29,043 nt of DNA from a virus (taxonomy: Duplodnaviria > Caudoviricetes): positions 1-29,043 of the IMG/VR virus record IMGVR_UViG_3300045580_000155, one strand, 5' to 3'. This document shows, piece after piece, positions 7,598-28,497 of this stretch. Position 1 is the stretch's first letter, and every line of letters starts with the position of its first letter. Under the pieces are notes generated by a model. It saw nothing but the letters and a program-made list of their open reading frames with translations. It did no database searches and was not told the DNA's origin. The translations under genes and the position numbers were made by a program.

Positions 7598-7603
7598 TAA
7601 ATA
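7598..7603 (+). promoter_or_regulatory. T4-type late promoter core TAAATA followed by a 5' hairpin
   Basis: Intergenic TAAATA. Hairpin TGTCCC(7608-7613)/GGGACA(7625-7630) begins 4 nt downstream, then AAGGAG and ATG 7658. Confidence 0.7.
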
Positions 7604-7657
7604 CAGTTGTCCCAAAAATAGTTAGGGACACAGAATACAACTAATAAGGAGCCCGAT

Positions 7658-8041
7658 ATGTCGGCAGCAAGTGATTTTACAGAGAACCTGGCATTGACCT
7701 GGTTATTAACTTCAAGTTCAGCAACAAGACCAAGTGCTTGGTATCTTGGACTTTTTACATCAGCAACCAGTGACGCTGGTGGTGGCACAGAAGTAAGTGG
7801 TGGCAGTTATGCTCGTCAAAGCGTAGCATTTACAGTATCTACTTCAACTGCCAGCAACAGTGCTACTATTACATTCCCAACAGCCAGTGCAAGTTGGGGC
7901 ACAATTACTCACGTGGCAGTGTTTGATGCCAGCACCAGCGGCAATATGCTGTTTCACGGAGCAGTTACAACCAGCAAGACCATTGACAGTGGTGACACTT
8001 TCCAGGTTACATCAGGTAACCTGACAATTACTCTTGCCTAA
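7658..8041 (+). CDS. Small fibre/filament structural subunit
   Basis: Widespread phage fibre-subunit motif YLGLFT...GTEVSGGSYARQSVAF...NSATITFPTASASWGTITHVAVFDA.TSGNML. Own promoter, strong SD, 3' hairpin. Confidence 0.75.
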   Translation: MSAASDFTENLALTWLLTSSSATRPSAWYLGLFTSATSDAGGGTEVSGGSYARQSVAFTVSTSTASNSATITFPTASASWGTITHVAVFDASTSGNMLFHGAVTTSKTIDSGDTFQVTSGNLTITLA

Positions 8042-8046
8042 TAAAG

Positions 8047-8067
8047 AGTAGGGCACCTAGCCCTACT
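8047..8067 (+). promoter_or_regulatory. Intergenic stem-loop (mRNA-stabilising or weak terminator)
   Basis: AGTAGGGC-ACCTA-GCCCTACT, perfect 8-bp stem, no U-tract on the + strand. Confidence 0.6.
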
Positions 8068-8084
8068 AAAGGATAAACTAAACT

Positions 8085-10472
8085 ATGGCCACAATATATC
8101 TAAGAGCAAGTCTAGGACGAGCATTAACCTGGGCAGAAGCAGATGCGAATATATCAAATCTCAACACTGCCAAGTTAGAAAATCTTGTAGAAGATACTAC
8201 ACCTCAACTGGGTGGTAATCTTGATGTCAATGGCAATAGTATTGTGTCAGCGAGCAATGGCAATATTACTATTGCTCCTAATGGCACTGGCACACTGATA
8301 TGCAACACAGATGTTAGCACACGCAATACCAGTGCTACATATAATCTCACAGCGGGTGGTTTTACACAATCATCAGATCAATTGTATGCTTTTAGTAGTG
8401 TTGGTGCAGATGGCACACAGTCAGGTAGCACGCCTCATAGGGGATTAGGTGTTAGTAATGCAACCTCAGGCGGTCGTAGTGTTGTATATGTTAGAGCACA
8501 CGGACAAAATGAAAGTGGTGGCACTAGCACTACCGCAGGCCTTGCTCAATTAACATTAGAAGGCACAAGAGGCACACATACTGCGCCCACTGCCTTAACC
8601 ACAGGTAATAGTTTTTCTATTATTAGTGCAGGAGGATATGATGGTGCCAAATACACTGTGGCTGACAGGGGTGCAGGCACAGCACAGATAATTTTCCAAG
8701 CAGATGAACCCTGGGCCAATGATGGCACATATACCACAGATGCTGGCACTAATGTTATAATGCGTATACAGCCCAGTAATATGCGTTTGACCAGTAATAG
8801 TCGTCAAAACATTTTTATCACTGATTGGGATACGGCAGTAACGGGCAGTGGCCCTGAGCAGTATATTTTATTTGGTTATCCCAATAGTAATACACAATAT
8901 ACCAACACAGGTGTTCAATATACGGGCAGTGCAAAAACTAATACGCAATTTATCAATACCGCTTTGGCCAATATTGGTGTAACTGGACAGGATAGCGCAC
9001 AATTTACAGCAGATATTACAGGAACCACAATGACAGTCACTGCTGTAGCCAGTGGTATTATAAGCCTAGGACAAAGAGTTTATACAAACAGTGATGGAAC
9101 CTGGGGCAGTGTTACACAATTAACTACAATTACAGCCTTAGGCACTGGCGCAGGTAGCACAGGCACTTATACTGTTAGTGTTAGTCAAACAGTTGCAAGT
9201 ATGACTATGTATAGTGGTCCTGATAATCATAGTTTAAGATATAGTAACAGTATTGCTTTAGTGGCAAATAGACGTAACGGTCTAATTGGTCGTAGAAATA
9301 AAATTAAAAATAATGACATAATTCATACTATTGATTTTTATGGCCAAACTACAAACAGTAGTAGCAGTTATGGTGGTAAAACGGCCACTATAGGTGTTAC
9401 TGCCGTAGAGGATTTTGAAACCACAGCCTATGGTAGTCGATTTGCAATTGAAACAGTAGCACCAACAACTACCACATTGTCAACTAGATTAAGTCTGCAA
9501 AGCACTGTGAGCACAATTAACACAGATAGTTTAACAGTGGAAAATGTCGCAGGCACAGATATCTTAACCTTGTCTACAACTAGTGCGCAATTGACCAGTG
9601 ATAGTATCACACTTAGTTCTACTAATAATGGTAATATCTCAATTACGCCCAATGGCACTGGTTCAGTGATTATCGATGGACTTAGTTGGCCACAGTCAGA
9701 TGGCACCGCAGACTATGTGCTTAAGACCAATGGTTCAGGACAATTAAGTTGGACAGCACAGTCCAGTGGATTTTCAAGTTTTACCCTAGCAGCAGATTCT
9801 GGAACTAGTCAAACTGTAAATGATGGTAATACTGTAACAATTAGTGGAGGCACAGGAATAAGCACTGTGGCCAGCGCTACTGATACTGTAACTATAAACT
9901 TAGACAATACCGCAGTTACACCTAACACTTATACATATGCCACTATAACAGTTGATCAACAGGGTCGTTTGACCAGTGCAAGTAGTGGAACCAGTCCTGT
10001 AACATCAGTTTCAGGAACAGGCACAGTAAATGGTATTAGTTTATCAGGCACTGTAACTTCTACAGGCAGTTTAACATTAGGTGGCACATTAGATCTAAGT
10101 AGTCCTCCTGCTATTGGTGGCACTACAGCAGCAGCAGTGTCAGCAACTAGTTTGACATTTAAGGATCCTAGAGAAGCCATATATGACCTAGGCACCACAG
10201 GTGGAACTATTGCTCCCAATGTAAGTAATGGATCAGTGCAAAAAATTACACTAAATTCAGCACTAACAATGAATGCTTTTACCAGTCCAGTAGCAGGACA
10301 AAGTATGACCTTGATAATCTACGGTGGCACTGCATATACCAGTATAACCAGCACAATGAAATTCGCAGGTGGTGTGAAAACACTAACAGGCACAGCCAGT
10401 TGTATAGATATTTTAAGCGTATATTATGATGGCACTACATATTTTGCCAGTCTTAATAAAGGATTTGCCTAA
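8085..10472 (+). CDS. Long mosaic tail fibre / virion structural protein
   Basis: Gly/Ser/Thr-rich 795 aa with fibre motifs EDTTPQLGGNLDVNG, NGNITIAPNGTG-like (twice), WPQSDGTADYVLKTNGSGQLSW, TVDQQGRLTSAS. Confidence 0.8.
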   Translation: MATIYLRASLGRALTWAEADANISNLNTAKLENLVEDTTPQLGGNLDVNGNSIVSASNGNITIAPNGTGTLICNTDVSTRNTSATYNLTAGGFTQSSDQLYAFSSVGADGTQSGSTPHRGLGVSNATSGGRSVVYVRAHGQNESGGTSTTAGLAQLTLEGTRGTHTAPTALTTGNSFSIISAGGYDGAKYTVADRGAGTAQIIFQADEPWANDGTYTTDAGTNVIMRIQPSNMRLTSNSRQNIFITDWDTAVTGSGPEQYILFGYPNSNTQYTNTGVQYTGSAKTNTQFINTALANIGVTGQDSAQFTADITGTTMTVTAVASGIISLGQRVYTNSDGTWGSVTQLTTITALGTGAGSTGTYTVSVSQTVASMTMYSGPDNHSLRYSNSIALVANRRNGLIGRRNKIKNNDIIHTIDFYGQTTNSSSSYGGKTATIGVTAVEDFETTAYGSRFAIETVAPTTTTLSTRLSLQSTVSTINTDSLTVENVAGTDILTLSTTSAQLTSDSITLSSTNNGNISITPNGTGSVIIDGLSWPQSDGTADYVLKTNGSGQLSWTAQSSGFSSFTLAADSGTSQTVNDGNTVTISGGTGISTVASATDTVTINLDNTAVTPNTYTYATITVDQQGRLTSASSGTSPVTSVSGTGTVNGISLSGTVTSTGSLTLGGTLDLSSPPAIGGTTAAAVSATSLTFKDPREAIYDLGTTGGTIAPNVSNGSVQKITLNSALTMNAFTSPVAGQSMTLIIYGGTAYTSITSTMKFAGGVKTLTGTASCIDILSVYYDGTTYFASLNKGFA

Positions 10473-14800: not shown

Positions 14801-14937
14801 GTAGAGACTTACAATTGGATCTTTATCCAACATTTAGAATTAGACCTGAAACTAATACACATAGAATACGACAGGAAACAAGGCTACATAGAATTCGTGC
14901 AGAATCTAGAATAGCCACAGTAAGGAGTGACCAATGA
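11857..14937 (+). CDS. Large virion protein: ~20-aa repeat arrays flanking a beta-propeller
   Basis: N- and C-terminal repeats of type A.L.S..S.T....R; central blades (GNVIWHKQY, GVVQWNLTF, DSLDNIYL, DSLGNLYITG, DSDNNLYII). Confidence 0.75.
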   Translation: MADQYYVDSGYVDDGYYVYIADAVSAQSAEFSQTASVNVAVSASADFGALFTPSITANVSVNGIPDFDSVFTISVDPVKNTATSITLDNIVNISLSAAPIRSTSISATSEFSQSVLLQRIRFAEANLNTEFTSSVQANITAQASGTYASQFTQTAEVGRVSTYWINFYSNNYYITDTVQLSDDSIIAVAQSSSGRSQLLKLSTSGNVIWHKQYEFASGYPSFGQIVRLSDNSVVVGGGNSSGSSSQHLIKINSSGVVQWNLTFGSAYHYISSDSLDNIYLTKSDVTTSLRKVNTSGTTQWQKRTNLVNSGPAVIDSLGNLYITGSTGTTTQTSMTRRLSASTGNETGTLSIVGGTGSVSNGIDVRVDSDNNLYIITLYQATSGGTEQYHILKYDSALNYQWSVREDSDLTSTKIAGFDSEDKGIYLTNRNELIFKLTSLGTTEYVRQLTQSTWNTFDTSYPYAAFLDLNRTGYLVPFTRRITTSDSTRLGGLGFIPLNGSGTPESPFSYTDYAFFSPSSGISLTTTTSSNSLTDETINSSTGSTIQVQDLSTTDISYSFSQAGNYQNVSAALTTSVSISVQTTTNIGITANLTSSASIAVLGGFLKGIESNLNSTATLSSTGYRVQESSSALMTNFSQTVTGFRTQEFTTNLMTSCSLALSGSITARFAIPLNSSVILAEDNVRIRDFSVSLAAFVAQLTAAAKVGVTLVDLASEFTQTAQAQITANVNTSLDSEFNQSLSPLATRLFDAALSVTGSLTVDADLLSNIQANLTTDINLSATAQRLRSSDVSLNTTGNLSLTGTRIQTANVSVSSSTTLTLAASSVLVASINLNSAFAQTAQSARTRQTDIALSATTSLAIDSTRYRLFEISQLSLFTPSITAVLSADRGSDMTVSSSLSAAAVKTARTLGNLNSQFDFIADIRGIRDTAANLNSTANLTAVNRVIRTAVCNLTLTSTVSVSTVKSVQTSSSLTALAAILSTGRDLQLDLYPTFRIRPETNTHRIRQETRLHRIRAESRIATVRSDQ

Positions 14938-15257: not shown

Positions 15258-15268
15258 TATAATTTCTA

Positions 15269-15276
15269 TATAAGTA
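15269..15276 (+). promoter_or_regulatory. Variant T4-type late promoter TATAAGTA
   Basis: One mismatch to TATAAATA; GTG 15281 lies 4 nt downstream with no SD. Confidence 0.55.
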
Positions 15277-15280
15277 TTGG

Positions 15281-15637
15281 GTGGATCACAAGATATTTTT
15301 ACAGCGTCTAAAAGAACTGGCCCGGGTTGAATTTTATGTAGAACCTTCTACTAGAGACAAGAGTAGAGTTAAGAATCCAACCTGGCCAGTTCGTGTTCGA
15401 GAAATAATCTCTACACCACAGGTCTGTGAAGATTGTGGACTAGTCTGTGTTGAGAGACGAGTAGAAATTAAAAAATGTTTTCATCCCATAGTGCATTGGC
15501 GTAGAACCTGTAATACCTGTAAATTATCAATGGATCCAGAAACCAAAAAATTCACAGTTGATACAAAAACAAGTTATAATTTCTTCAAACTATACTACTC
15601 TAAAATAAAGACAAAAATATCTAAATCTAATAAATAA
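15281..15637 (+). CDS. Hypothetical zinc-ribbon protein
   Basis: CEDC and CNTC pairs; basic; probably leaderless. Confidence 0.7.
   Translation: MDHKIFLQRLKELARVEFYVEPSTRDKSRVKNPTWPVRVREIISTPQVCEDCGLVCVERRVEIKKCFHPIVHWRRTCNTCKLSMDPETKKFTVDTKTSYNFFKLYYSKIKTKISKSNK
15631..15636 (+). promoter_or_regulatory. T4-type late promoter core TAAATA driving candidate sRNA-1
   Basis: Overlaps the stop of the upstream ORF; first hairpin of the non-coding stretch starts 5 nt downstream (15642). Confidence 0.65.
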
Positions 15638-15641
15638 TAGT

Positions 15642-15768
15642 GTCAGGCAGAGTTCATTGCCATACTCTGTTTTCACTGACCTGGAAGATCCTATAGGTCT
15701 GTTCAACTCATAATCTTCCAGAAAAAAACACTTTGTTTTTCCCCGCTTCGCCGTGCGGGGTTTTTTTT
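15642..15768 (+). ncRNA. Candidate structured small RNA (sRNA-1, ~127 nt)
   Basis: Promoter; hairpin GTCAG/CTGAC enclosing GCAGAGT/ACTCTGT (loop TCATTGCCAT); hairpin CTGGAAGAT/ATCTTCCAG; AAAAACA/TGTTTTT; intrinsic terminator. No credible ORF. Confidence 0.65.
15741..15768 (+). terminator. Rho-independent terminator
   Basis: CCCCGC-TTCGCCGT-GCGGGG followed by T8. Confidence 0.9.
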
Positions 15769-15800
15769 GACTATAACAGCCCATTTTTTTGACTTTCTAA

Positions 15801-15806
15801 TAAATA
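15801..15806 (+). promoter_or_regulatory. T4-type late promoter core TAAATA in the loop of a hairpin reaching the SD
   Basis: CTTTCTAA(15793-15800)-TAAATA-TTGGAAAG(15807-15814), then GAGG and ATG 15823. Confidence 0.65.
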
Positions 15807-15822
15807 TTGGAAAGGAGGACAT

Positions 15823-16166: not shown

Positions 16167-16174
16167 TATAAATA
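16167..16174 (+). promoter_or_regulatory. Perfect T4 late promoter consensus TATAAATA
   Basis: Intergenic, heads the LuxR/polymerase gene cluster. Confidence 0.72.
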
Positions 16175-16608: not shown

Positions 16609-16702
16609 TTTTCGTAGTGACACTATTAATAAGTTTCTCTGTGATAGTGACACTTTAATGCTAATTTCATTGTTCTTTCATCATAGGAGCAATCATAAAT
16701 GA
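16598..16702 (+). CDS. Possible 34-aa ORF (MRNNFRSDT...), not in the ORF track
   Basis: GAGGAG upstream; overlaps both neighbours (ATGA at 16699). May be a by-product of a cis element. Confidence 0.35.
   Translation: MRNNFRSDTINKFLCDSDTLMLISLFFHHRSNHK
16615..16659. repeat. Two palindromic direct repeats TAGTGACACT(A)TTAAT, 30 bp apart
   Basis: TAGTGACACT at 16615 and 16645, each followed by (A/-)TTAAT; core AGTG-A-CACT is self-complementary. Confidence 0.6.
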
Positions 16703-17097
16703 ATTATTCTCCAGTGCTTTGCGTTAATTCATTACTTAAGCAAGCCTATGAATTTTATCTTCGACCCGATAGGCTTGAACTGATAATATCTGATATGCAA
16801 CAGGTATCCGCTATTGATAGAAAAAAAAGTCAGATTATCTTAGAGAGATATGTAGAACTGCTTATTGACAGTATTAGAGATTTGAATTTAGGTAAGGATA
16901 ATTGGGAACTTGAATTCAATCAATTTTATATTCCTTTGAGCCGGATACGACATCGAGCCGGAAGATATGGACCTCAAGGTCAACAAAAATATTGGTCTGA
17001 CTGGTTTTTGGCCAATCATTCATTTATTCTGATTGATCGACTAGGATATCATTATAAAAATAGAGCCAGACCCACTGTGGCCAAGATTAAAGGATAA
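16699..17097 (+). CDS. Hypothetical protein, possible partner or N-terminal domain of the polymerase-like gene
   Basis: SD AGGAG; 132 aa; ends 7 nt before the polymerase-like ORF. Confidence 0.65.
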   Translation: MNYSPVLCVNSLLKQAYEFYLRPDRLELIISDMQQVSAIDRKKSQIILERYVELLIDSIRDLNLGKDNWELEFNQFYIPLSRIRHRAGRYGPQGQQKYWSDWFLANHSFILIDRLGYHYKNRARPTVAKIKG

Positions 17098-17104
17098 AAA
17101 CAAG

Positions 17105-18316
17105 ATGAAAAAGATACCTATTGATCGTAGAAGTTTATTGAATTATATAAATTGGGAATATGATTTATATCTTCAATACCAAAGAGCGAATAACACCAAT
17201 CAACGACAAGAAAGTCATTATAGACTAAGATATGCTCAAAACATATTAAGTCTTGCAGAAATTAACCAAGGATCGTTGCCAGTCACGGAATTTAAGAGTC
17301 AATTTGGCAGAACTTATCATCAGGGCATAAACTTACAAAGTTGTCCCAGTGTAGTTAGAATAGCAGCATTAGGACGTTGTTATTGTGCTGATGTAGATGC
17401 CAGTGCATTGACCTGGAAATACCAAATGGCTCGAAAAATTGATCCCCAACTTCGAGCACCTTATACTATAGATTATTTTGATTACAAAAATTATCATAGA
17501 CAGCAATTAAGTTATAGAGTTTTTGGAACCGACAAATATATCAGTTTGGTCAAACAAATATTCAGTGCTGTGGGATTTGGAGCCACTATAAATCGCAGTG
17601 GTTGGATAAACATAGGCACTAAAGAAAATCCCAGTTTTAGACCAAGCACTGCTTTGACAGACATTATAAGAGACAAACAAACCAGAAAGCGATTGCTAGA
17701 TGATCCTTGGTTCCAGAATTTTACACAAGAGCAAACAGTTATTTCCAATATCATTTACAATGAAGTTAAAAATTTGCCTGCTCTACGTAAAGATATGTTT
17801 CGAACGCCCAGTGGTAGAATTAGCCAAAATCGTGTCTTGGCCTTTTTATATCAGCAAAGCGAAACAGAATTTATGAAGCCCGTTATTGATTGGGCTCAAC
17901 AGTCAGAACTGTTATTGGTCTGTCACGATGCTGTCTACACTAGATATCGACCTGATATAGCCAGTTTGCAGTATCTATTAACACTGAATTTACCCAATAG
18001 TTCAATGAGTTTAGAAGCACATACCAGGTTCCAAAGTAAAGAAGATATACAAGAACTAGAAAGGCACAAAAATTTTATACAAGAGGAAGAATATCGTGCG
18101 GCCCGAGAGCATAATCGACCTATTCATCGACCTAAACCATTAAAATTTCCTTATGAACAGCGTAATGAAGAATATGATTCGGGCTATGATGATGGTCATA
18201 GTGCTTATCTAGAACCTAGATATAATGAATATAATGAAGACCTAGATCAATTTGTTCCTGAACCACTTCCTGATTATATCCTACAATTACTTGACACTGC
18301 TCAAAATCAGATATAA
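17105..18316 (+). CDS. Divergent family A DNA polymerase / T7-type RNA polymerase superfamily catalytic domain, no exonuclease
   Basis: Ordered motifs: FGRTYHQGINLQ, motif A CADVDAS, motif B VKQIFSAVGFGA, LYQQSE, motif C LLVCHDAVY; acidic C-terminal tail. Confidence 0.7.
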   Translation: MKKIPIDRRSLLNYINWEYDLYLQYQRANNTNQRQESHYRLRYAQNILSLAEINQGSLPVTEFKSQFGRTYHQGINLQSCPSVVRIAALGRCYCADVDASALTWKYQMARKIDPQLRAPYTIDYFDYKNYHRQQLSYRVFGTDKYISLVKQIFSAVGFGATINRSGWINIGTKENPSFRPSTALTDIIRDKQTRKRLLDDPWFQNFTQEQTVISNIIYNEVKNLPALRKDMFRTPSGRISQNRVLAFLYQQSETEFMKPVIDWAQQSELLLVCHDAVYTRYRPDIASLQYLLTLNLPNSSMSLEAHTRFQSKEDIQELERHKNFIQEEEYRAAREHNRPIHRPKPLKFPYEQRNEEYDSGYDDGHSAYLEPRYNEYNEDLDQFVPEPLPDYILQLLDTAQNQI

Positions 18317-18864: not shown

Positions 18865-18916
18865 AGTATTATTGATATCCCAAGTAAATCACATAGATAC
18901 AATAAGGAGTAACACT

Positions 18917-19116: not shown

Positions 19117-19122
19117 TAAATA
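19117..19122 (+). promoter_or_regulatory. T4-type late promoter core TAAATA, leaderless start
   Basis: TAATAAATA-cata-ATG(19127); no SD. Confidence 0.7.
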
Positions 19123-19676: not shown

Positions 19677-19839
19677 AGATTTATTTGAAGCCCTGCTGTT
19701 AGGCACGCTAATTGCCTGTGTCACTGACATCCATTGGGGCATAATTGCCCTGTTCTTTTGGATTTTAGTATGTCAACTGTTAAGGCACAAAGAATTAGAC
19801 AGTGAATATGAACATATAGATAGAGATTTGTTTAAATAA
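19669..19839 (+). CDS. 56-aa membrane protein (holin-like topology), not in the ORF track
   Basis: GTG start; MIRDLFEALLLGTLIACVTDIHWGIIALFFWILVCQLLRHKELDSEYEHIDRDLFK: hydrophobic stretches plus charged tail. Confidence 0.55.
   Translation: MIRDLFEALLLGTLIACVTDIHWGIIALFFWILVCQLLRHKELDSEYEHIDRDLFK
19833..19838 (+). promoter_or_regulatory. T4-type late promoter core TAAATA driving candidate sRNA-2
   Basis: Overlaps the upstream stop; hairpin starts 4 nt downstream at 19843. Confidence 0.65.
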
Positions 19840-19926: not shown

Positions 19927-19932
19927 GAACAC

Positions 19933-19940
19933 TATAAATA
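19933..19940 (+). promoter_or_regulatory. Perfect T4 late promoter consensus TATAAATA heading the packaging operon
   Basis: Just after the terminator; ATG 19946 is 5 nt downstream with no SD. Confidence 0.75.
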
Positions 19941-19945
19941 CAACT

Positions 19946-20431
19946 ATGACAATACACGACAGCGGCTCAGTGAGCCTTCGACCCGTTAAGACGGAATGCA
20001 GCCACGATGACTGTGACTGTGAGATACCGGCAGAAACCCCTGAACAAGAGATTGCATCCAAATGGGAATTTAAACCCAGACAAAATCCTAAATGGGGCAC
20101 AGTTACTCGTCAAGGGCTCATAGTAGGACGTGGAGCGAGAAAGCGAGTAGTGCCACCTGATGAAGTCTATAAGTTGGCTGCATTGGGCTGCACTATGGAA
20201 GAAATGGCAGATTGGTTCCAAATCAATAGAGAAACACTGAAATATAACTTTAGTGAATACATAGCAAAAGGTCAGGCTGAACTAAAGACTAGACTTAGAC
20301 GTGCTCAGATAAAAACTGCCCTGGATGGTAATGCCACTATGTTAGTGTGGTTGGGCAAGAATATCTTGGGCCAAACTGACACACCTTCAAATAATACAGC
20401 CAATGAACCCTTACCTTGGACAGATCAATGA
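19946..20431 (+). CDS. terS: Terminase small subunit (HTH DNA-packaging protein)
   Basis: EVYKLAALGCTMEEMADWF..NRETL...LRRAQ...GNATMLVWLGKNILGQ.D; upstream of TerL; start refined to ATG 19946. Confidence 0.75.
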   Translation: MTIHDSGSVSLRPVKTECSHDDCDCEIPAETPEQEIASKWEFKPRQNPKWGTVTRQGLIVGRGARKRVVPPDEVYKLAALGCTMEEMADWFQINRETLKYNFSEYIAKGQAELKTRLRRAQIKTALDGNATMLVWLGKNILGQTDTPSNNTANEPLPWTDQ

Positions 20432-20799
20432 CTGTAGATGAACGTATTGGCATTCTAGAAGAAAGAACTACAAATATCGGTGTGAGATTGGATGAAGTTA
20501 GGCAGGAAGTAAAAGAAATGCACGACTGCTTGGACAGAACAAGAGATTTATTAGATGCCAAGATGGAATCAATGTTAGTGGAATATAGACAGAATAGAGA
20601 TAATTTTTATACTAAATTGGATGAACATAATCGAACGAATACACAGGGTCATCAGGAAATGATGACTAAAATAAATGATTTGGAGCGAGCGAAAAACAAG
20701 GCCACAATCATAGGTATAGCCCTAGCAGCATTTATAGCAGGCACCGGCTATCTTACCCACGGTGAAGTGGCCAAGATAATACGACTGCTCGCTGGATGA
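20428..20799 (+). CDS. Coiled-coil protein with C-terminal membrane anchor (XhlA/holin-like architecture)
   Basis: ERIGILEE... coiled coil, then ATIIGIALAAFIAGTGYL; ATGA coupling. Confidence 0.6.
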   Translation: MTVDERIGILEERTTNIGVRLDEVRQEVKEMHDCLDRTRDLLDAKMESMLVEYRQNRDNFYTKLDEHNRTNTQGHQEMMTKINDLERAKNKATIIGIALAAFIAGTGYLTHGEVAKIIRLLAG

Positions 20800-20969
20800 A
20801 GATAGACATCAACTGGTCCGATATACCTACAGAATGGCTAGAAACAGATTATCTAGTTATAGCAGACTTTTGGGAAGATGGTGTAGAATGGTGTCATTTA
20901 CAAATTCTCAATCCCCTGGTCAGTGCTTGGATATTACGCCATCATCCTGAATGGATTTACTACGATTAA
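20796..20969 (+). CDS. 57-aa Trp-rich hypothetical protein, not in the ORF track
   Basis: MKIDINWSDIPTEWLETD...; ATGA overlap upstream and stop abutting the TerL ATG. Confidence 0.65.
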   Translation: MKIDINWSDIPTEWLETDYLVIADFWEDGVEWCHLQILNPLVSAWILRHHPEWIYYD

Positions 20970-22205
20970 ATGTCATTAACACCTGCTCAACAACAAATAG
21001 CATACAGTCCTAGTAGAATGACTGTGGCAATTTGCGGACGTAGATTTGGAAAAACTTTTCTTGCTCGTAATCGCATTGCCTATGCTGCTAGAATTCCCAA
21101 TCAAGAAGTATGGTATGTGGCTCCTACTTATAGACAGGCCAAACAGATAATGTGGCGTAGTTTAAAAAATAAACTACAAGATTTAAGATGGATTAAAAAA
21201 ATCAATGAGTCTGAACTTAGTATAGTATTAAAAAATAATAGCATAATATATCTTAAGGGCAGTGACAATAGTGACAGCCTCCGTGGTAGTCGAATTCATT
21301 ATTTGGTCTGCGACGAATTTGCTCTTATGGACAGTGAAAGTTGGTTTAGCGTGCTTAGACCTATGCTCAGTGACACACAAGGTCGTGCTCTGTTTATTAG
21401 CACACCTATGGGACAGGCTAACTGGGCTTATGACCTGTATCAAATGCAGCATACACAGCCTGAAGTTTGGCGAAGTTTTTCATATTCTACGTTAGATGGC
21501 GGTCAGGTCAGCGAAGAAGAGATAGAAGCCGCAAGGCTTGACTTAGACGAGCGGACCTTTCGTCAGGAATTTATGGCCACATTTGAACAATTTCAAAATA
21601 GAGTCTATTACAGTTTTGACAGAGTCTATAATGTTCTAGATGCTGGGGATATGAACACTGATATTATATATTGTGGAATTGATTTTAATGTCAGCCCAGT
21701 AACAGCAGTTATAGCAATTAGACAGGGAGACAATTTATATGTCATCGACGAAATCCGTATGTATTCTTCTAATACCCAAGAACTTGCGGCAGAAATACAT
21801 AGCAGATATCCAACGAGTAAGAAGTTCGCATATCCAGATCCCTCAGGAACGCAGCGTAGAACCTCGGCTGGCGGCCTTACTGACCACACGATACTCGCCA
21901 ACAATCAATTTACAGTCAAATCACCAAGAAGCCATACTCCGGTTAGAGACAGAATCAATGCAGTCAATTCCAGATTGTGCTCAGCAGCGGGCAAAAGACA
22001 CCTCTTTATAAGCCCACGGTGTAAATATACTATAGAAAGTTTAGAAAAGCATAGTTATCGACAAGACAGTGTTCAGCCTGACAAAGATAGTGGATGGGAC
22101 CACTTAACTGATGCTCTAGGCTATATGGTTGATTACCTGTTTCCTATACGAAGAAATCAGGAACCACAACGTGCCCAACGATGGGTGCATAGAATACAAG
22201 GATAA
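20970..22205 (+). CDS. terL: Terminase large subunit
   Basis: Walker A GRRFGKT, YVAPTYRQAK, Walker B YLVCDE, coupling motif ISTP, nuclease GIDFN...DHLTDALGY. Confidence 0.97.
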   Translation: MSLTPAQQQIAYSPSRMTVAICGRRFGKTFLARNRIAYAARIPNQEVWYVAPTYRQAKQIMWRSLKNKLQDLRWIKKINESELSIVLKNNSIIYLKGSDNSDSLRGSRIHYLVCDEFALMDSESWFSVLRPMLSDTQGRALFISTPMGQANWAYDLYQMQHTQPEVWRSFSYSTLDGGQVSEEEIEAARLDLDERTFRQEFMATFEQFQNRVYYSFDRVYNVLDAGDMNTDIIYCGIDFNVSPVTAVIAIRQGDNLYVIDEIRMYSSNTQELAAEIHSRYPTSKKFAYPDPSGTQRRTSAGGLTDHTILANNQFTVKSPRSHTPVRDRINAVNSRLCSAAGKRHLFISPRCKYTIESLEKHSYRQDSVQPDKDSGWDHLTDALGYMVDYLFPIRRNQEPQRAQRWVHRIQG

Positions 22206-22210
22206 TAAAG

Positions 22211-23770
22211 ATGAATGTAATAGAAACCCTAAATGAAGAACTAAGAAGACTGTTACAGGGTAATCAACTCTATGAAGATTATATTGACCAATGGAAGTTT
22301 TTACTTGAAAGTTTCGTCGGAGGACGTGAATATAGAGATGGAAATCATTTGACACGTTATCAATTAGAAACTGATGCAGAATATGCTGCACGTATTAGAA
22401 CAACTCCTTTACAAAATCACTGTGCCAGTGTTATACAAATCTATAATAGTTTCTTGTTTAGACAAAGTCCTGAACGTGATTTTAGTCTAAATGGACAACA
22501 AGAATTAGTAGAGATGACACTGAGAGATGCTGACTTTGATGGTCGCAGTCTTGATGCCTTTATGAAAGAGGCTGCTACCTGGGCCAGTGTGTTTGGACAC
22601 AGTTGGATCATAGTCAGCAAGCCTAATGTTGGTGCTGTAACACAGGCTGATGAACAGGCTCTTGGTGTTAGACCCTATCTCAGTGTGCTTACTCCAATGG
22701 TAGTGTTAGATTGGCAGTATCAGCGTCAGCCCAATGGCAGTATGGAATTAGTTCTGCTACGTTATTTGGAAGATGTCACTGGTGATTCACGAACAGTAAG
22801 AGTATGGACCAAGGAATCAATTACGACCACAACCATTGATGTTAAAAAGGGCTATATAGAAACTGAATTAATAGAACCAAATCAACTAGGACGAATTCCT
22901 GCTGTCTGTGTTTATAATGGACGCAGCATCGTGCGTGGATTCGGCATCAGCGACATAGCAGACACGGCCTATGTTCAAAAGTTTATCTATAACTGTCTAA
23001 GTGAAGTAGAGCAGACTATTCGTATGGATAGCCATCCCAGTCTAGTGGTAACCCCTGAAACCAATGTGGGCACTGGCAGTGGAGCCATTATACATATGCC
23101 CGAGAATCTAGATCCAGGACTAAAACCCTATCTATTAGAATTTACGGGTGCTGAAGTCAATAACATTCTAACCACTATAGACCGAGCAGTGGACAGTATT
23201 GACCGTATGAGCAACACAGGCAGCATACGAATGACTGAAGCACGTCGTCAAACAGCCGCAGCACAAGAGCAAGAGTTCCAAATGCTAAATGCTCGTCTCA
23301 GCGAAAAAGCCGATAACCTAGAACTAGCAGAAGAACAAATGTGGCAATTTTGGTTTGCTTATCAAGGCGAAACCTGGATGGGCAGTGTTGAATATCCTAA
23401 CAGTTTTAATATTCGTGATGAACAAATGGAAATCAGTCAACTACAACAGGCTCGTAGTGCTGCTACTGATCCGGCTGTGCTGCGTGAAATTGACAAGAAG
23501 ATTTTAGAATTCTTAGGGGTAGAACCTGAAGCAGTGTTTGCCTATGAAGACATTAAGCCAGAACAGGGTAGAACATATCCTGATGGCGAATCTATACCTG
23601 AATCATTGCCACCTGCATATCAAGACAGTGCCAGCCCTGATGTGCCAGGCGAGCAAAAGTGTGCTAATTGTAATTACTATGTGGCCACAGAAAGTTATTG
23701 TAATAAGTTTGATGCACTAGTTAGACCCATTTATTGGTGTGCTAGTTGGGAACAGAAAGAAGAAGAATGA
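22211..23770 (+). CDS. Portal protein with C-terminal HiPIP-like four-Cys domain
   Basis: Follows TerL; DADFDGRSLDAFM...FGHSWIIV, NQLGRIPAV, GISDIAD, VEYPNSF portal motifs; tail CANC-x9-C-x12-C. Confidence 0.9.
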   Translation: MNVIETLNEELRRLLQGNQLYEDYIDQWKFLLESFVGGREYRDGNHLTRYQLETDAEYAARIRTTPLQNHCASVIQIYNSFLFRQSPERDFSLNGQQELVEMTLRDADFDGRSLDAFMKEAATWASVFGHSWIIVSKPNVGAVTQADEQALGVRPYLSVLTPMVVLDWQYQRQPNGSMELVLLRYLEDVTGDSRTVRVWTKESITTTTIDVKKGYIETELIEPNQLGRIPAVCVYNGRSIVRGFGISDIADTAYVQKFIYNCLSEVEQTIRMDSHPSLVVTPETNVGTGSGAIIHMPENLDPGLKPYLLEFTGAEVNNILTTIDRAVDSIDRMSNTGSIRMTEARRQTAAAQEQEFQMLNARLSEKADNLELAEEQMWQFWFAYQGETWMGSVEYPNSFNIRDEQMEISQLQQARSAATDPAVLREIDKKILEFLGVEPEAVFAYEDIKPEQGRTYPDGESIPESLPPAYQDSASPDVPGEQKCANCNYYVATESYCNKFDALVRPIYWCASWEQKEEE

Positions 23771-24129
23771 CCGGGAGCGAATCGGTGAGACTTCCTTACA
23801 GGCACATTAGAGAATTTAGACAGCAAACACTGCTGTTACAAAATAATCAATGTGCTCTATGTGAGGACATTATAACAGATGATGCAGTATTGGATCACTG
23901 TCATAGAACAGGACTAGTCAGACAGGTATTGCATAGAGGGTGTAACGCACTATTGGGAAAAATAGAAAACAATCTTAAGCGTAATCGTATAACGACCACC
24001 CGATTAGAGCGCATTGCTCTTAACCTAACTGACTATATCCTAACTGAACACACAGACATAGTTCATCCAAAACATCAAGGAGCAGATATGAAAAAGTCAA
24101 AGCGTAAACCAGCAAAAAAGAAATATTAA
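23767..24129 (+). CDS. Endonuclease VII-like (His-Me finger) nuclease
   Basis: QNNQCALC...VLDHCHRTGLVRQVLHRGCNALLG; start refined to ATG 23767 (ATGA overlap). Confidence 0.85.
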   Translation: MTGSESVRLPYRHIREFRQQTLLLQNNQCALCEDIITDDAVLDHCHRTGLVRQVLHRGCNALLGKIENNLKRNRITTTRLERIALNLTDYILTEHTDIVHPKHQGADMKKSKRKPAKKKY

Positions 24130-24130
24130 T

Positions 24131-24175
24131 ACTTAGATATATGAATTATATCTTATAATTTTTATAGATATAAGT
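24131..24175. repeat. AT-rich imperfect palindrome
   Basis: Core AATTATA-TCT-TATAATT with outer arms ACTTA...TAAGT. Confidence 0.55.
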
Positions 24176-24189
24176 TTAAGGAGAATATA

Positions 24190-24351
24190 ATGGCTCTCAA
24201 ACGCGGTTATGGAAAAAAGACAATTAGTAAAAACATTGCCTCAGAAGTAAGAGCAGGTCGTAGTGTCAAACAGGCAGTGGCCATTGCTTATAGTGTGGCT
24301 CGTAAATCAGCACCAAAGAGTCAACGAGCACGTTTTACCAAGAAGAAATAA
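24190..24351 (+). CDS. 53-aa highly basic protein (KQAVAIAYS family), not in the ORF track
   Basis: TAAGGAG SD; MALKRGYGKKTISKNIASEVRAGRSVKQAVAIAYSVARK..., a common small phage family near head genes. Confidence 0.85.
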   Translation: MALKRGYGKKTISKNIASEVRAGRSVKQAVAIAYSVARKSAPKSQRARFTKKK

Positions 24352-24382
24352 CCATTATTACTCATTATTTTTACCAATATAA

Positions 24383-24410
24383 TAAATACTCCATATAACT
24401 CATAATGGAG
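24383..24410 (+). promoter_or_regulatory. T4-type late promoter core TAAATA plus SD-sequestering hairpin for the scaffold/capsid operon
   Basis: TAAATA(24383-24388), then CTCCAT(24389-24394) pairing with ATGGAG(24405-24410), which contains the SD. Confidence 0.7.
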
Positions 24411-24421
24411 GCGATGCCACA

Positions 24422-25090
24422 ATGTCAGACAATACATTGACGGAGGTCACTGATACCTCAGAAACAAATCAGGCCCAGGTAGCAAGAACTTACAGTCAAG
24501 AAGAAGTTGATGGAATGATGGCAAGGATGAAATCCAGCCTTCAAAAACGACTACTAAAACCCTATGAAGACCTAGGTGATCCTGAAGAACTTAGAAACAT
24601 TAAAACAGAATGGGAAAAGCGACAACAGGAACAACAGGTCAAGCGTGGAGAGTTTGAAAAAATTCTACAGGATAAGGCTGCTCGGTGGGAACAAGAAATA
24701 GCAAAAAGAGACCAAATCATTAAGGACTATCGTGTGAATACACCTTTACTGTCAGCAGCAGCACGTTATAATGCAGTCAATGCCGAGCAGGTAAAGAGTC
24801 TTCTTATTTCCAATGTTAGACTTAATGACACAGGTGATGTCGAAGTCATAGATAGCAAAGGTTCAGTTCGTTATACGGACCGTGGAGAACCATTAGGCGT
24901 TGATGACCTAGTGCGTGAATTTTTAGATTCGAATCCGCATTTCCGCACAGCAACTCCTGCTACTACGGCAACTCGGACCAGTATAGCAGCCCCTAGTCCT
25001 CAGAGAATAGATGTGTCTAAATTAGATATGAATAATCCTGAACATAAGAGGCTCTATCGAGAACATAGAAAGGCTTTAGGCCTTCGTTAA
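24422..25090 (+). CDS. Capsid scaffolding protein
   Basis: TYSQEEVD, coiled coil, EFLDSNPHF; directly upstream of the capsid gene. Confidence 0.85.
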   Translation: MSDNTLTEVTDTSETNQAQVARTYSQEEVDGMMARMKSSLQKRLLKPYEDLGDPEELRNIKTEWEKRQQEQQVKRGEFEKILQDKAARWEQEIAKRDQIIKDYRVNTPLLSAAARYNAVNAEQVKSLLISNVRLNDTGDVEVIDSKGSVRYTDRGEPLGVDDLVREFLDSNPHFRTATPATTATRTSIAAPSPQRIDVSKLDMNNPEHKRLYREHRKALGLR

Positions 25091-25109
25091 ACTTTAAAGG
25101 ACATTTATT

Positions 25110-25961
25110 ATGGCTAATGAAAGCACAACCACTACGCTAAATGACCTCCTACCCAGCATTGTTGCAGAAGCATTGTTTGTGGCCAGTGAGGCATCAATTA
25201 TGCGTAATCTAGTAAGAAATTACACAATCCCAATGGGCAGTGGTAAAACAATCACAGTTCCACGTTATCCTCAGGTCAGCGCAGCAGCATTGACTGAAGG
25301 CACAGATTTGACCAATACAGCAGTCAGCACAGATGGCGCTGTATTAACTGTTAGTGAAGTTGGTGTTATGACAGTGGTCACTGACCTTGCTCGTATGGCC
25401 AGTGCCAGCAATGTAATCGCTGATGTAGGACGTTTATTTGGTGAAGCAATTGCTCGCAAAATTGACACTGACCTAACAGCACTGTTTGATGGTTTCTCAA
25501 CCAATGCACTTGGTGATGGCACTACAGCAATTACTGCTGCTGCTATTTTCCAAGCAGTGGCCAAACTACGCAGTGCTGGTGTTCCTCCAACAGATTTATT
25601 CTGTGTATTACACCCAGCAATTGCCTATGACCTCAAGGCCAATATGACCAACACATTTGCTAACCCAAATGCTGGTATTCTTCAAAATGAAGCAATGGCC
25701 ACTGGTTATGTGGGCACACTGGCTGGAGTTCCAATCTTTGAAACATCAAATATGGCCAATACTGGCACTACTGGTGATTACAAAGGTGGATTATTCCACA
25801 GAGACGCTCTTGGACTTGCCTTCCTACAAGACATCAAGATTGAAACACAGCGTGACGCAAGTCTCCGTGGTGATGAACTTGTAGCCACAGCAGTATATGG
25901 TGTTGGCGAATTGTATGATGGCTATGGCGTAGAATTACACTACGACTCAAGCATTCTTTAA
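25110..25961 (+). CDS. Major capsid protein (HK97 fold)
   Basis: GKTITVPRY...LTEGTDL, GEAIARKIDTDL, VLHP...YDL, GTLAGVPIFETSN, IETQRDASLR, VYGV. Confidence 0.93.
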   Translation: MANESTTTTLNDLLPSIVAEALFVASEASIMRNLVRNYTIPMGSGKTITVPRYPQVSAAALTEGTDLTNTAVSTDGAVLTVSEVGVMTVVTDLARMASASNVIADVGRLFGEAIARKIDTDLTALFDGFSTNALGDGTTAITAAAIFQAVAKLRSAGVPPTDLFCVLHPAIAYDLKANMTNTFANPNAGILQNEAMATGYVGTLAGVPIFETSNMANTGTTGDYKGGLFHRDALGLAFLQDIKIETQRDASLRGDELVATAVYGVGELYDGYGVELHYDSSIL

Positions 25962-25975
25962 TCAGGGAGCACTTT

Positions 25976-26485
25976 ATGGCTTTCATTATTGAATCTGGTT
26001 CTGTTACAAGTTTTGCTGAATATAGTGATGCTGTCACACAGGATCAGCGACTATTTTTAAGTAATGAAAGCCTCACTGATGACTATGTTGAGCCCTTATT
26101 GATTCGTGCCACAGAACGTATCTTGACAAGATTAAGAGCCAGTTCGTGGTGGCGTAGTTATTTCATTCAGAGAGACACTGCGACCACAATCAATACAGTG
26201 GCCGACATTCCAGGTCTTGACCCAGATCGTATTCTAAGCAGACAGGACGACTTCACAGACCTTTGTGTGTTTGTGGCCTTTAGCGACTATATTCTACCAG
26301 GTATAGCAGACTTTGGAGACGAAGCCAACAGCGAGCGTCAGAAAATGGGCTACTACAAACAACGTGGGGACGAACTCATAGCAGAATTGATTACGGCAGG
26401 AGACTGGTATGATTTTGACAATGACAGCACCATTGATACCACAGAAAAACAGCCCGGACAGGTAAATCTAAAGAGAATAAGATGA
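25976..26485 (+). CDS. Head-to-tail adaptor (putative)
   Basis: Position after the capsid gene; helical; YDFDNDSTID..EK C-terminus. Confidence 0.6.
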   Translation: MAFIIESGSVTSFAEYSDAVTQDQRLFLSNESLTDDYVEPLLIRATERILTRLRASSWWRSYFIQRDTATTINTVADIPGLDPDRILSRQDDFTDLCVFVAFSDYILPGIADFGDEANSERQKMGYYKQRGDELIAELITAGDWYDFDNDSTIDTTEKQPGQVNLKRIR

Positions 26486-26874
26486 GACAAGAGATATTAG
26501 ATTATATTGGAGATCTTAATCTTGGTGCATTTACCACCAGTCAGGAACTACCTTGGGACAGTTCAGGAACACCGCTTTACGTAAAAAACTTGAAAAAGAT
26601 TTACGTGGATCGTCCTGAATACACTGAGGAAACTGTGATAGCAACCTTAGATGGTGTTACTATAGAAAATCAAACCACATCAGTGCGAGCGTTCTTTGCT
26701 TGTGATGCCAAAGCACTACCACCCAGTTATGATGACCTAGTTCAGGACCTAAGATCTGTTAGAGATATTGACACAGTCACTGGCTTTTCAAGTCGTGGCT
26801 GCGAAATCACTAGTAGATTTGAATCAGATGTCTTGGTCACAGAACTGACTTATACTTTCGTCAAACTAATATAA
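26482..26874 (+). CDS. Tail terminator / completion protein (putative)
   Basis: 130 aa, MRQEILDYI start, immediately before the tail tube gene. Confidence 0.55.
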   Translation: MRQEILDYIGDLNLGAFTTSQELPWDSSGTPLYVKNLKKIYVDRPEYTEETVIATLDGVTIENQTTSVRAFFACDAKALPPSYDDLVQDLRSVRDIDTVTGFSSRGCEITSRFESDVLVTELTYTFVKLI

Positions 26875-26885
26875 AGGAAACAACT

Positions 26886-27401
26886 ATGGCGTATATTAAT
26901 CCAGGACCAGGAACAGCAAGTCAAATTGTGTTATCAATTGACACCACTGCTAGTTCCACAGTAACTGGTGATCCTGCTACAGCCATTGCACTAGGGGCTA
27001 GTCCTCTAACTGTGCCTGCTATTCAGGATATCACCGTAAATGCTGCTAATGATGTTTTCACTTGGAGCCAGTTAGACAGTTCAGCCAAAAAACAAGTAGC
27101 AACTACTTCTACTAATTCAGTTAGTATGAATGTTGTAGTAGATGATGCTTCATTCTTTGGCTCTACACTAGCCAGCACTCAAAGTGACACAGTGGCAGCA
27201 CAGGGACTTTTAGGTCTCAGCCGCAACAAAACCCCAATTTGCTTTACACTGAAAATGCGTGAAAATTCAAGCACAGACCGTGTGATCAAAGGACAGGGCT
27301 ATATTACTGGTCTAGCACCAACAATATCAGCAGACAGTCCAGTATGGGTAACACCTGTAACTATCACAGTTGCTGGTGAATACTTGGTTGCAGTAAGTTA
27401 A
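26886..27401 (+). CDS. Major tail tube protein
   Basis: Beta-rich 171 aa ending GYITGLAPTISADSPVWVTPVTITVAG; strong SD and terminator; precedes the chaperones. Confidence 0.8.
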   Translation: MAYINPGPGTASQIVLSIDTTASSTVTGDPATAIALGASPLTVPAIQDITVNAANDVFTWSQLDSSAKKQVATTSTNSVSMNVVVDDASFFGSTLASTQSDTVAAQGLLGLSRNKTPICFTLKMRENSSTDRVIKGQGYITGLAPTISADSPVWVTPVTITVAGEYLVAVS

Positions 27402-27420
27402 TTAATTTTAACAAGAAAAC

Positions 27421-27445
27421 AAGGGCTATTCGTAGCCCTTTTTTT
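27421..27445 (+). terminator. Rho-independent terminator with UUCG loop
   Basis: AAGGGCTA-TTCG-TAGCCCTT-TTTTT. Confidence 0.92.
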
Positions 27446-27454
27446 GTATTGACT

Positions 27455-27460
27455 TAAATA
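27455..27460 (+). promoter_or_regulatory. T4-type late promoter core TAAATA restarting transcription after the terminator
   Basis: 9 nt after the U-tract; followed by AGGAAG and ATG 27478. Confidence 0.7.
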
Positions 27461-27477
27461 CACTAACAGGAAGATTA

Positions 27478-27651
27478 ATGGATCTAATAGAAACAAAAAC
27501 AGATTTGGCCTTATTGCGTAGTCTACTTGCTGAAGTGGCCAAGGCACAAAATGAAATCACACAGGCACGCCTTGACATTGACAAAGCACAGAGTCGCATA
27601 AGATTCAGCCTATTAATTATAAACAAACTTATTGACAGAAAGGTAGATTAA
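27478..27651 (+). CDS. 57-aa coiled-coil protein, not in the ORF track
   Basis: MDLIETKTDLALLRSLLAEVAKAQNEITQARLDIDKAQSRIRFSLLIINKLIDRKVD; SD present; fills the gap. Confidence 0.75.
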   Translation: MDLIETKTDLALLRSLLAEVAKAQNEITQARLDIDKAQSRIRFSLLIINKLIDRKVD

Positions 27652-27653
27652 CA

Positions 27654-27953
27654 ATGAAATTACAAGATCTAGCAGCAAAACCAAAACTCATAGAAATAAT
27701 ACTTGACAGCGATGACGTTGTTAAAGAATTCGGTGAGCCCATTAGTTTTTGGACCTGGGATCGTCAGCCAATGCACATATTTGTAAAATTAGCCAGTGTT
27801 GATAATACTAACATAGGCAGTATGATGAGTGCCGTGCGAGAACTAGTTTTAAATGAGCAAGGACAACAAATTATCACAGAAGACAATATGCTGCCAACAA
27901 GAGTATTAATGTTGTGTATTACAAGAATTGTTGAAAGTTTGGGAAAGTTTTAG
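27654..27953 (+). CDS. Tail assembly chaperone (lambda gpG-like)
   Basis: Between tail tube and tape measure; ends ...SLGKF over a slippery site. Confidence 0.85.
   Translation: MKLQDLAAKPKLIEIILDSDDVVKEFGEPISFWTWDRQPMHIFVKLASVDNTNIGSMMSAVRELVLNEQGQQIITEDNMLPTRVLMLCITRIVESLGKF
27941..27947 (+). other. Programmed -1 ribosomal frameshift site G GGA AAG
   Basis: Same heptamer and phase as lambda G-T; the -1 frame is open from 27941 to 28216. Confidence 0.88.
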
Positions 27954-28216
27954 ACGCCAAGATTGAAGATTCAGATCCGGATCTTAGGCGTATATTGATG
28001 TTAGATGGGTTAGCAACAAGATACAAATTGCTGCCCAGTGAAGTTTTAAGTAGAGGTGATACTTTGGATGTATTAGTAATGGATCGAGCACAGGCCTGGG
28101 AACAGTATCAACGAGACTTATATGAAAGTAAAACACAGGGTCGTGCTCCACCTCCTCCTAAAAACATTCCCAAGACTGAACTACAGGCCTTGTTAGATAG
28201 TGTGAGAAAACAATGA
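27941..28216 (+). CDS. Frameshift extension of the tail chaperone (gpT-like)
   Basis: -1 frame reads GKVLDAKIEDSDPDLRRILMLDGLATRYKLLPSEVL..., in frame with track ORF 27995. Confidence 0.82.
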   Translation, partial: GKVLDAKIEDSDPDLRRILMLDGLATRYKLLPSEVLSRGDTLDVLVMDRAQAWEQYQRDLYESKTQGRAPPPPKNIPKTELQALLDSVRKQ

Positions 28217-28497
28217 AATTAAAATTAGTATCAGATACTATAACAGGTAGTTTAGACCGTAATCAGAGATTTTTAACTCAGTTGCCTCGACGAGCCTTTG
28301 ATTATTTTATCAAACAAACTCCTAAGGATACAGGTCGTGCTAGATCAAATACAAGATTACAGTCAACAACCATTGAAGCAAATTATCCTTACGCTCAGGT
28401 TTTAGATCGTGGTTCAAGTCGTCAGGCTCCACAAGGTATGACTAAACCTACACAACAGTATCTAAATAAGTTGGTAAGACAATCGCTAAGGAAATAA
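28213..28497 (+). CDS. HK97 gp10-like tail component
   Basis: TPKDTGRARS...NYPYAQVLDRGSSRQAPQGM motif. Confidence 0.75.
   Translation: MKLKLVSDTITGSLDRNQRFLTQLPRRAFDYFIKQTPKDTGRARSNTRLQSTTIEANYPYAQVLDRGSSRQAPQGMTKPTQQYLNKLVRQSLRK

Follow-up and report, generated by a model that had tools for sequence, protein, structure and literature searches.

The DNA studied here, positions 1 to 29,043 of IMG/VR record IMGVR_UViG_3300045580_000155 (in the following ‘the window’, 29,043 nucleotides), carries the hexamer TAAATA in front of many of its genes, and the question arises what this motif does and which protein reads it in a phage where no sigma factor could be detected. Our analysis indicates that TAAATA is very probably a promoter of the late type. 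With more reserve, we favor the explanation that it is a T4-type late promoter, read by a gp55-like sigma factor which a Rak2-like jumbo phage infecting the same cell supplies; the small phage would depend on this jumbo phage in a virophage-like manner.

The window begins and ends with the same 202 bases and therefore represents a complete circular phage genome of 28,841 bp, with all 42 called genes on the + strand. The virion genes comprise TerS, TerL, an SPP1-type portal, scaffold, capsid, neck, tape measure, tail and fibre genes, the tail genes running on across the circular join into 1-15257. No sigma factor, RNA polymerase, helicase, primase, endolysin, integrase or tRNA was detected (41 window proteins scanned). 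The sole sigma-labelled match is a 64-aa LuxR-type helix-turn-helix (HTH) protein, and a replication-type gene with a PolA fold does occur. With its 28.8 kb, tape measure and SPP1-type portal, and without a sheath, the window is no T4-like or Rak2-like myophage. Comparisons were based on a set of 12 genomes, namely the window, ten relatives that are 90-100% complete (G001-G010) and DSL-LC06 of the proposed ‘Nanhuiviridae’. DSL-LC06 is the nearest described metagenome phage, and among cultured phages the HTVC111P-type phages of SAR11 come closest (capsid identity 60-68% to the latter and 42.5% to DSL-LC06; TerL 44-49%). Sigma factor, helicase, primase, endolysin and integrase also gave no match among accessory proteins of 10 relatives, of which 93 out of 129 listed were covered.

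A preliminary description of the window had reported 11 TAAATA sites on the + strand, and all were found at these positions. The - strand has a further three (3848, 5365 and 12065), all within tail coding sequences (CDSs). Altogether, 14 sites on both strands compare to 35.2 expected from dinucleotide shuffles. The codon-preserving shuffle that had been proposed as a check was carried out and gave 2 sense sites in CDSs vs 18.5 expected and 3 antisense sites vs 18.0; none of 300 synonymous-codon shuffles was as low. Among the 4096 hexamers, TAAATA is the 12th most depleted in the window and its complement the 17th, the more depleted ones mostly containing GTAC or AGCT. GTAC, AGCT and CATG are wholly absent from the window, and the set of avoided words varies among G001-G010, which points to hosts with different restriction systems.

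In terms of placement, the proposed enrichment at gene starts was borne out: 8 of the 11 sites are followed by a start codon within 70 nt (p ~1e-6), and three (15801, 19935 and 27455) come after terminator hairpins. Other parts of the description needed to be narrowed. Tail CDSs are free of the motif on the + strand (none in 1-7597 and 7604-15630), but not on the - strand, with its three sites. Likewise, 22022 and 28463 are not the only sites that touch a CDS, as 15631 and 19833 occupy the last codons or the stop of one. The spacing of 4-5 nt between box and start, a value derived from start codons and hairpins, may mark the position of the transcription start. As a distance to the start codon it applies to 19117, 19935 and the TAAGTA variant at 15271, thus to 2 of the 11 TAAATA sites plus the variant, and not to the others, which lie 16-60 nt ahead of genes led by a Shine-Dalgarno sequence or ahead of putative RNAs. 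A fixed start point followed by variable leaders would give such varied distances. In T4, transcription from P23 starts 5 nt after the core. The individual boxes and the elements next to them are as follows:

7598..7603, + strand: TAAATA before the gp80-like fibre gene block (7658-15257); TAAATA in 8 of the 9 genomes with the gene, TAAGTA in the ninth.
15271..15276, + strand: TAAGTA variant, separated by 4 nt from the GTG of the zinc-ribbon gene, so that the transcript would be leaderless; TAAGTA, 4 nt and start codon in 5 of the 9 genomes with the gene.
15281..15637, + strand: C4 zinc-ribbon protein, conserved (9 of 12 genomes), not sigma-like.
15631..15636, + strand: TAAATA in the last codons of the zinc-ribbon gene, likely starting a small RNA; 9 of 9 genomes.
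15801..15806, + strand: TAAATA after a terminator, 16 nt before the open reading frame (ORF) at 15823; second box in 9 of 9 genomes.
16169..16174, + strand: TAAATA before the LuxR-HTH gene (16235) and the block downstream of it.
19117..19122, + strand: TAAATA 4 nt before the ATG at 19127 (phrog_16521 family); 7 of 9 genomes.
19833..19838, + strand: TAAATA overlapping a stop codon, likely starting a second short RNA; same layout in G002 and G003.
19935..19940, + strand: TAAATA 5 nt before the TerS ATG; box in 12 of 12 genomes, with 4-5 nt spacing in 10 of 12.
19946..28841, + strand: complete packaging, head and neck module (TerS, TerL, portal, scaffold, capsid, tail tube).
22022..22027, + strand: TAAATA within TerL (Cys-Lys-Tyr codons), 184 nt before the end of TerL.
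24383..24388, + strand: TAAATA before the scaffold-capsid-tail tube operon; 12 of 12 genomes.
27421..27447, + strand: intrinsic terminator after the tail tube gene.
27455..27460, + strand: TAAATA after this terminator, 17 nt before a 57-aa gene (27478); 9 of the 10 genomes listed.
28463..28468, + strand: TAAATA inside the neck gene, with the tape-measure ATG 30 nt downstream; 0 of 11 relatives.

Two of these sites turned out differently from what had been described. The site at 22022 had been counted as an exception inside a CDS. It reads TGT AAA TA in 23 of 24 distinct TerL sequences, from relatives that are not independent of each other, and TGT AAG TA in the remaining one, while comparable tripeptides elsewhere encode TAAATA in only 1 of 23 cases. 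Because of this conservation, the site is probably an internal promoter, serving the portal gene. The site at 28463, in turn, had been linked to the tape-measure gene. As no relative has TAAATA upstream of that gene, it is probably incidental. In one metatranscriptome run, contigs cover 24410-25127, 25381-25648, 25700-25969, 25988-26722 and 27040-27232, the first one starting about 20 nt after the 24383 box, where DNA contigs run through. We do not count these RNA contigs as evidence, because they come from one study, are contigs only, have a loose end concerning the adapter and may reflect DNA carry-over. Separately, an AT-rich inverted repeat (24130-24189) occupies a 60-nt gap without TAAATA ahead of a 53-aa gene at 24190.

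The avoidance is shared by the family. In the CDSs of the 12 pooled genomes, 43 sense sites were counted vs 135.9 expected, and 39 antisense sites vs 181.8; in a ranking of hexamers, the antisense form (38 vs 185.8) is the most depleted of all. Of the TAAATA sites, 16 stand at 4-5 nt from a start codon. A search via the tail tube gave 81 loci, partly overlapping each other and the 12 genomes, with 105 vs 316 (sense) and 61 vs 363 (antisense). DSL-LC06 shares the pattern. The family flanks show A in 61% at -1 and G in 3% at +1, and the upstream logo has no conservation at -35 but only a bias derived from terminators. In the case of four HTVC111P-type pelagiphages, no such signal was seen: counts were 115 vs 114.9 (sense) and 147 vs 124.3 (antisense), with 2 sites at 4-5 nt. 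These phages have genes on both strands, a lysozyme or peptidase M15 (4 of 4) and DnaD-like genes (3 of 4). The window, without a two-strand early module, DnaD-like and lysis genes, is not of this type. In a TerL tree made with a quick method and an untested root, the HTVC111P types are nested among TAAATA-avoiding lineages, and we make no claim on the direction of gain or loss.

These numbers also bear on the idea that TAAATA is no promoter at all but results from stop codons, AT-rich spacers or the avoidance of restriction sites, or else is an archaeal-type TATA box, which we regard as very improbable. It draws on the facts that the motif begins with TAA, that two sites overlap stop codons and that three tetranucleotides are missing from the genome. 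Against it stands the depletion on the antisense strand, the strongest of any hexamer in the pooled genomes. Of 16 single-base neighbours tallied, values below 0.8 are confined to TAAGTA (0.39), TATATA (0.50), TACATA (0.69) and TAATTA (0.71), and the remaining 12 range over 0.82-1.45. TAAATA is furthermore no palindrome and is kept at gene starts, and the avoidance of restriction sites is patchy between genomes. An archaeal-type TATA box lies at about -26, a position that start codons 4-5 nt downstream of the motif do not fit.

The T4 late-promoter assignment made in the preliminary description was supported by the avoidance in CDSs on both strands, the conservation of position, A or C at -1, the rarity of G at +1 and a leaderless peak at 4-5 nt like that of gp55-encoding jumbo phages. 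Known promoters of this type read TATAAATA in T4, NATAAATA in cyanomyoviruses (PMC2984593) and ATAAATA in phage CBB (PMC5259590). The window agrees with them in its TAAATA core, which is -10-like, lacks a conserved -35 and stands before virion genes (PMC2984593, PMC7892883, PMC5259590). In T4-type systems, gp55 alone gives basal transcription from the -10-like box, and gp33 and gp45 boost it (PMC7892883). Unlike these systems, the window belongs to a 29-kb phage with a non-contractile tail and no detected gp55, and its box is also found ahead of non-structural genes and small RNAs. Overall, the feature is real and its promoter class is known, while its context is unusual.

To what extent could the host itself read the motif? 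Family and jumbo genomes carry ordinary TTGACA-17-TATAAT sites (in 15 of 166 upstream regions of the family, where 2.0 were expected, and in 39 of 285 of the jumbo phages, where 3.6 were expected), from which it follows that the housekeeping sigma factor of the host is conventional. Because these sites exist apart from TAAATA, the latter is not the sigma70 box of the host, in line with the preliminary description. With a weight matrix trained on the jumbo phages, no strong sigma70 promoter was found in the window, the best score near its gene starts being 11.3 (training minimum 11.9, median 19.4), and a consensus scan of the window found 49 sites vs 41.9 expected. That a sigma factor of the host bacterium, housekeeping or alternative, reads TAAATA is improbable in our view. 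The idea draws some room from the host of DSL-LC06 being only predicted, as Pseudomonadota (PMC10611076). Apart from the conventional housekeeping sigma, it is opposed by the gp55-like gene that the jumbo phages encode for themselves. The phrog_234 profile matched none of 14 control genomes at E<=0.01. To our knowledge, there is no bacterial sigma factor with a TAAATA consensus.

We then turn to the phage's own proteins. No gp55 profile match was obtained in 15 family genomes that are at least 90% complete (G000-G010, G016-G019), with phrog_234 run on G000-G004 and phrog_12791 on G000, G001, G005-G010 and G016-G019; the same profiles match the jumbo phages G011 and G012 at 1e-23 to 1e-81. A local hidden Markov model (HMM) built from 3 gp55 sequences gave nothing below E 0.7 in 136 sequences, and for DSL-LC06 the absence of gp55 is covered by annotation and this local HMM only. 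TAAATA might nevertheless be read by an unrecognised factor of the phage, such as a tiny or diverged sigma-like protein or an activator, possibly carried in the virion, which would make the phage autonomous. We consider this the main alternative, less likely than a borrowed sigma but with several points in its favor. There are conserved unassigned proteins, namely 27478 (11 of 12 genomes) and the zinc-ribbon, phrog_16521 and 19491 families (9 of 12 each); 7 of the 12 genomes have sigma70 promoters, and the family is widespread. In addition, the cultured phages with related capsids grow alone, having been purified by dilution to extinction (10.1101/2019.12.14.876532). Those autonomous relatives, on the other hand, lack the TAAATA signal and possess lysis and DnaD-like genes.

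The candidates themselves do not fit the role well either. None of 17 profiled non-structural or small proteins of the window is present in all 12 genomes: the zinc-ribbon protein and 27478 are both missing from DSL-LC06, and G005 and G010 each have just one of the four candidates. The most conserved non-structural genes of the window sit behind TAAATA or TAAGTA themselves; the zinc-ribbon, phrog_16521 and 27478 genes are each immediately preceded by the box that their products would need to activate. The zinc-ribbon protein was rejected as a sigma factor: its predicted structure (predicted local distance difference test, pLDDT, 77.6) is a small beta/zinc fold, with weak Atlas matches, no sigma match and no PDB match at E<=0.001 in a fold search. 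Moreover, it is less parsimonious that an unrelated factor should have reached the exact gp55 core with its flanks. As to the 57-aa protein at 27478-27651, it is helical, has its own terminator-plus-TAAATA unit and gives 92 matches overall, none to a known family.

The PolA-fold gene was also considered, as a private RNA polymerase:

16699..18316, + strand: split replication-type gene with a PolA fold (132 + 403 aa), an exchangeable module; Atlas TM 0.54 to DNA polymerase A.

An HMM found it in 2 of 12 genomes and a direct search in 0 of 5, and in a close strain it is replaced, the contigs of that strain departing from the window at 16576 and rejoining it at 18301. Being so patchy, the gene cannot be the reader of the motif. 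Its homologues mostly have about 530 aa and form 455 clusters at 50% identity without Pfam or PHROG match; the split into two ORFs is also seen in a contig of run X3. In motif A, where DNA polymerases have Glu and T7 RNA polymerase has Gly at one position, Ala or Val is present here, and the family is possibly a TV-Pol-like primase-polymerase. In the AT-rich gap before this Rep-type gene (16609-16698), direct repeats TAGTGACACT occur in two copies about 30 nt apart, a candidate origin or operator.

If neither the host nor the phage provides the factor, a second phage comes into question. The starting point was an accessory Cys-rich gene, through which a locus carrying a sheath gene (L255) was reached and, from there, the relatives of this locus. 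The resulting 80 loci belong to aquatic myophages with a sheath related to that of PA5oct, SCTP-2, Atu_ph07 and Rak2-like coliphages; the largest record has 250 kb at 71% completeness. Their GC content is 0.35-0.47, and they avoid TAAATA in CDSs as well (151 vs 401 and 188 vs 437), with a sharp leaderless peak at 5 nt, A at -1 in 55-66% and G at +1 in 6-10%. A gp55-like gene was present in 2 of the 5 partial jumbo records searched (G011 and G012). In the cultured Rak2-like phage CBB, ATAAATA precedes structural genes at 35 places, and a gp55-like sigma is present, while gp33 and gp45 were not detected (PMC5259590). A clamp-independent sigma of the CBB type would be easy to borrow. As a side observation, L255, L257-L335 and G011-G015 represent a large uncultured lineage of aquatic Rak2-like jumbo phages with many leaderless late genes, one subgroup of which is wholly without AGCT.

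Genes are also shared between the two groups. In the five partial jumbo genomes (605 kb), 25 of 446 family proteins found a match, compared to 2 of 235 pelagiphage proteins. The LuxR HTH of the window shares 56% identity over 57 aa with part of a G011 protein, and further matches include a glycosyltransferase (49% over 373 aa), a GIY-YIG-like protein (56%) and fibre segments with 71-75% amino-acid and 65-75% nucleotide identity. As a control, 150 kb of Kyanoviridae, Moby and Mosig matched 14 of 446 family proteins (8 TerL and 5 of the phrog_13558 gene) and gave no nucleotide matches, this control being smaller than the 605 kb of jumbo DNA. By tetranucleotides, the best match was a jumbo phage in 12 of 12 genomes, a weak result since 5 of the 10 references were jumbo phages and one margin was 0.66 vs 0.64.

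Other pointers to a helper were less helpful. A search of the jumbo phages for gp33, gp59 and gp32 gave no match for any query and is uninformative, and no CRISPR array was found in the five partial jumbo genomes, where two repeat bins fall within fibre genes. ORF 18914 was rejected as a pointer, because its 37 relatives sit in other phages without TAAATA avoidance; this ORF (18914-19099) is common to large low-GC freshwater phages and to unrelated myophages that do not avoid TAAATA. The phrog_13558 gene matched 57 cultured records, of which the 25 listed are all T4-like. In IMG/VR, most of its matches outside the family are unrelated phages, and only L255 is a jumbo sheath locus.

Under the borrowed jumbo sigma, infection could proceed as follows. 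Alone, the small phage would remain largely silent. In a cell infected by the jumbo phage, the core RNA polymerase of the host together with the late sigma of the jumbo would open the TAAATA promoters and start 4-5 nt after the box, the terminator-plus-box units (15801, 19935 and 27455) would reset transcription block by block, and the small phage would make its own particles. Lysis would be supplied by the helper, and the small phage would leave then.

Several observations weigh against such a dependence. Shared genes and composition imply a shared pool of host cells, not the need for a helper. Strong non-coding sigma70 sites stand before accessory genes in 7 of the 12 genomes (the window not being one of them), hence some relatives can express genes alone, and several relatives carry Rep-like genes. 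The family occurs widely in freshwater, and no integrated form of it is seen, as 185,579 bacterial genomes contained no relative of its capsid or tail tube; dependence would therefore need some route of co-infection. Kyanoviridae use a similar box (14 sites in DSL-LC03) and are the best database matches of the LamG fibre protein, so the lineage of the helper is not fixed. Finally, the accessible text on PA5oct gives its promoters as TATAATA/TTGAC only (PMC7318152).

The small RNAs deserve separate mention:

15641..15768, + strand: predicted structured small RNA headed by the 15631 box and ending in an intrinsic terminator (15741-15768).
19843-19927, + strand: second short hairpin RNA between two TAAATA boxes, with a terminator at 19899-19927; same layout in G002 and G003.

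Homologues of the first one in all nine genomes concerned (window, G001-G004 and G006-G009) have 115-185 nt, a terminator and fold z values of -2.1 to -7.0, the terminator being included for eight. All nine contain GCCAT, which has a chance of about 9% in each. Rfam gave nothing above the gathering score for the window or the small RNA. Its loops bear the words TTGCCAT and GCTGTCAC; in G001, G004, G006 and G008, words complementary to these (GTGACAG or TGACAG, and TGGCAA) stand at the start of the following transcript, which suggests an antisense switch by analogy to P1 c4 or P4 CI. A targeting of helper start codons was also considered, as GCCAT loops pair with AUG-GCA starts, but it was not supported: jumbo start regions had a higher match fraction than internal AUGs for only 3 of 7 words.

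Among known systems, the virophages Sputnik, Mavirus and Guarani form their own virion and have the late promoter of their helper before many or all genes, from which transcriptional reliance was inferred (PMC6723459). The window likewise encodes a complete virion behind a late box of the helper type, and by analogy may be dependent in the same way; it differs in being a tailed bacteriophage, while virophages are eukaryotic Preplasmiviricota in the factories of giant viruses. The Streptomyces satellites MiniFlayer and MulchRoom have their own head genes and no primase, as does the window, and MiniFlayer, which the window would resemble in lifestyle, does not integrate and enters together with its helper (PMC10690885). 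These satellites have 20-26 genes, for which the accessible text names head genes and a tail fibre but no full tail module, and promoter borrowing is not mentioned there (PMC10690885). In contrast, the family of the window has about 42 genes and a full tail.

The late promoter of P4 is activated by P2 Ogr. P4, PICI, cf-PICI, PLE and I55 are parasites of helper phages, the helper of I55 being a jumbo phage (PMC12772148). They integrate and borrow structural parts, whereas the window has no integrase match and its own head and tail. The accessible description of DSL-LC06 makes no mention of promoters (PMC10611076), and in open-access papers and bioRxiv we found no report of a small tailed phage using the gp55 promoters of a helper.

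In conclusion, DNA near-identical to the window was found in freshwater and drinking-water runs, with at least half of the words present in 18 of 24 listed runs, two of which are possibly the source. We give about even weight to the wider proposition that the window stands for a large and widespread freshwater family of tailed ‘bacterial virophages’ of 26-32 kb. Its members would be transcribed via the late sigma of Rak2-like jumbo phages, exchange fibre parts with their helpers and carry a conserved small RNA possibly acting on helper or own mRNAs, the HTVC111P-type phages of SAR11 being a branch without such wiring. Should the phage have a reader of its own after all, it would be a new phage factor that converged on the gp55 promoter, also a notable outcome. 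A cheap screen follows from the borrowed-sigma explanation: a late box present, gp55 absent and endolysin absent. If that explanation is true, a further mode of satellitism would be added, not found in the searched literature, in which a transcription factor is borrowed rather than a capsid. This would explain why such lineages are poorly isolated on clean hosts and would change models of host range, abundance and burst, and many ‘ordinary’ small phages of viromes would be hyperparasites of jumbo phages.

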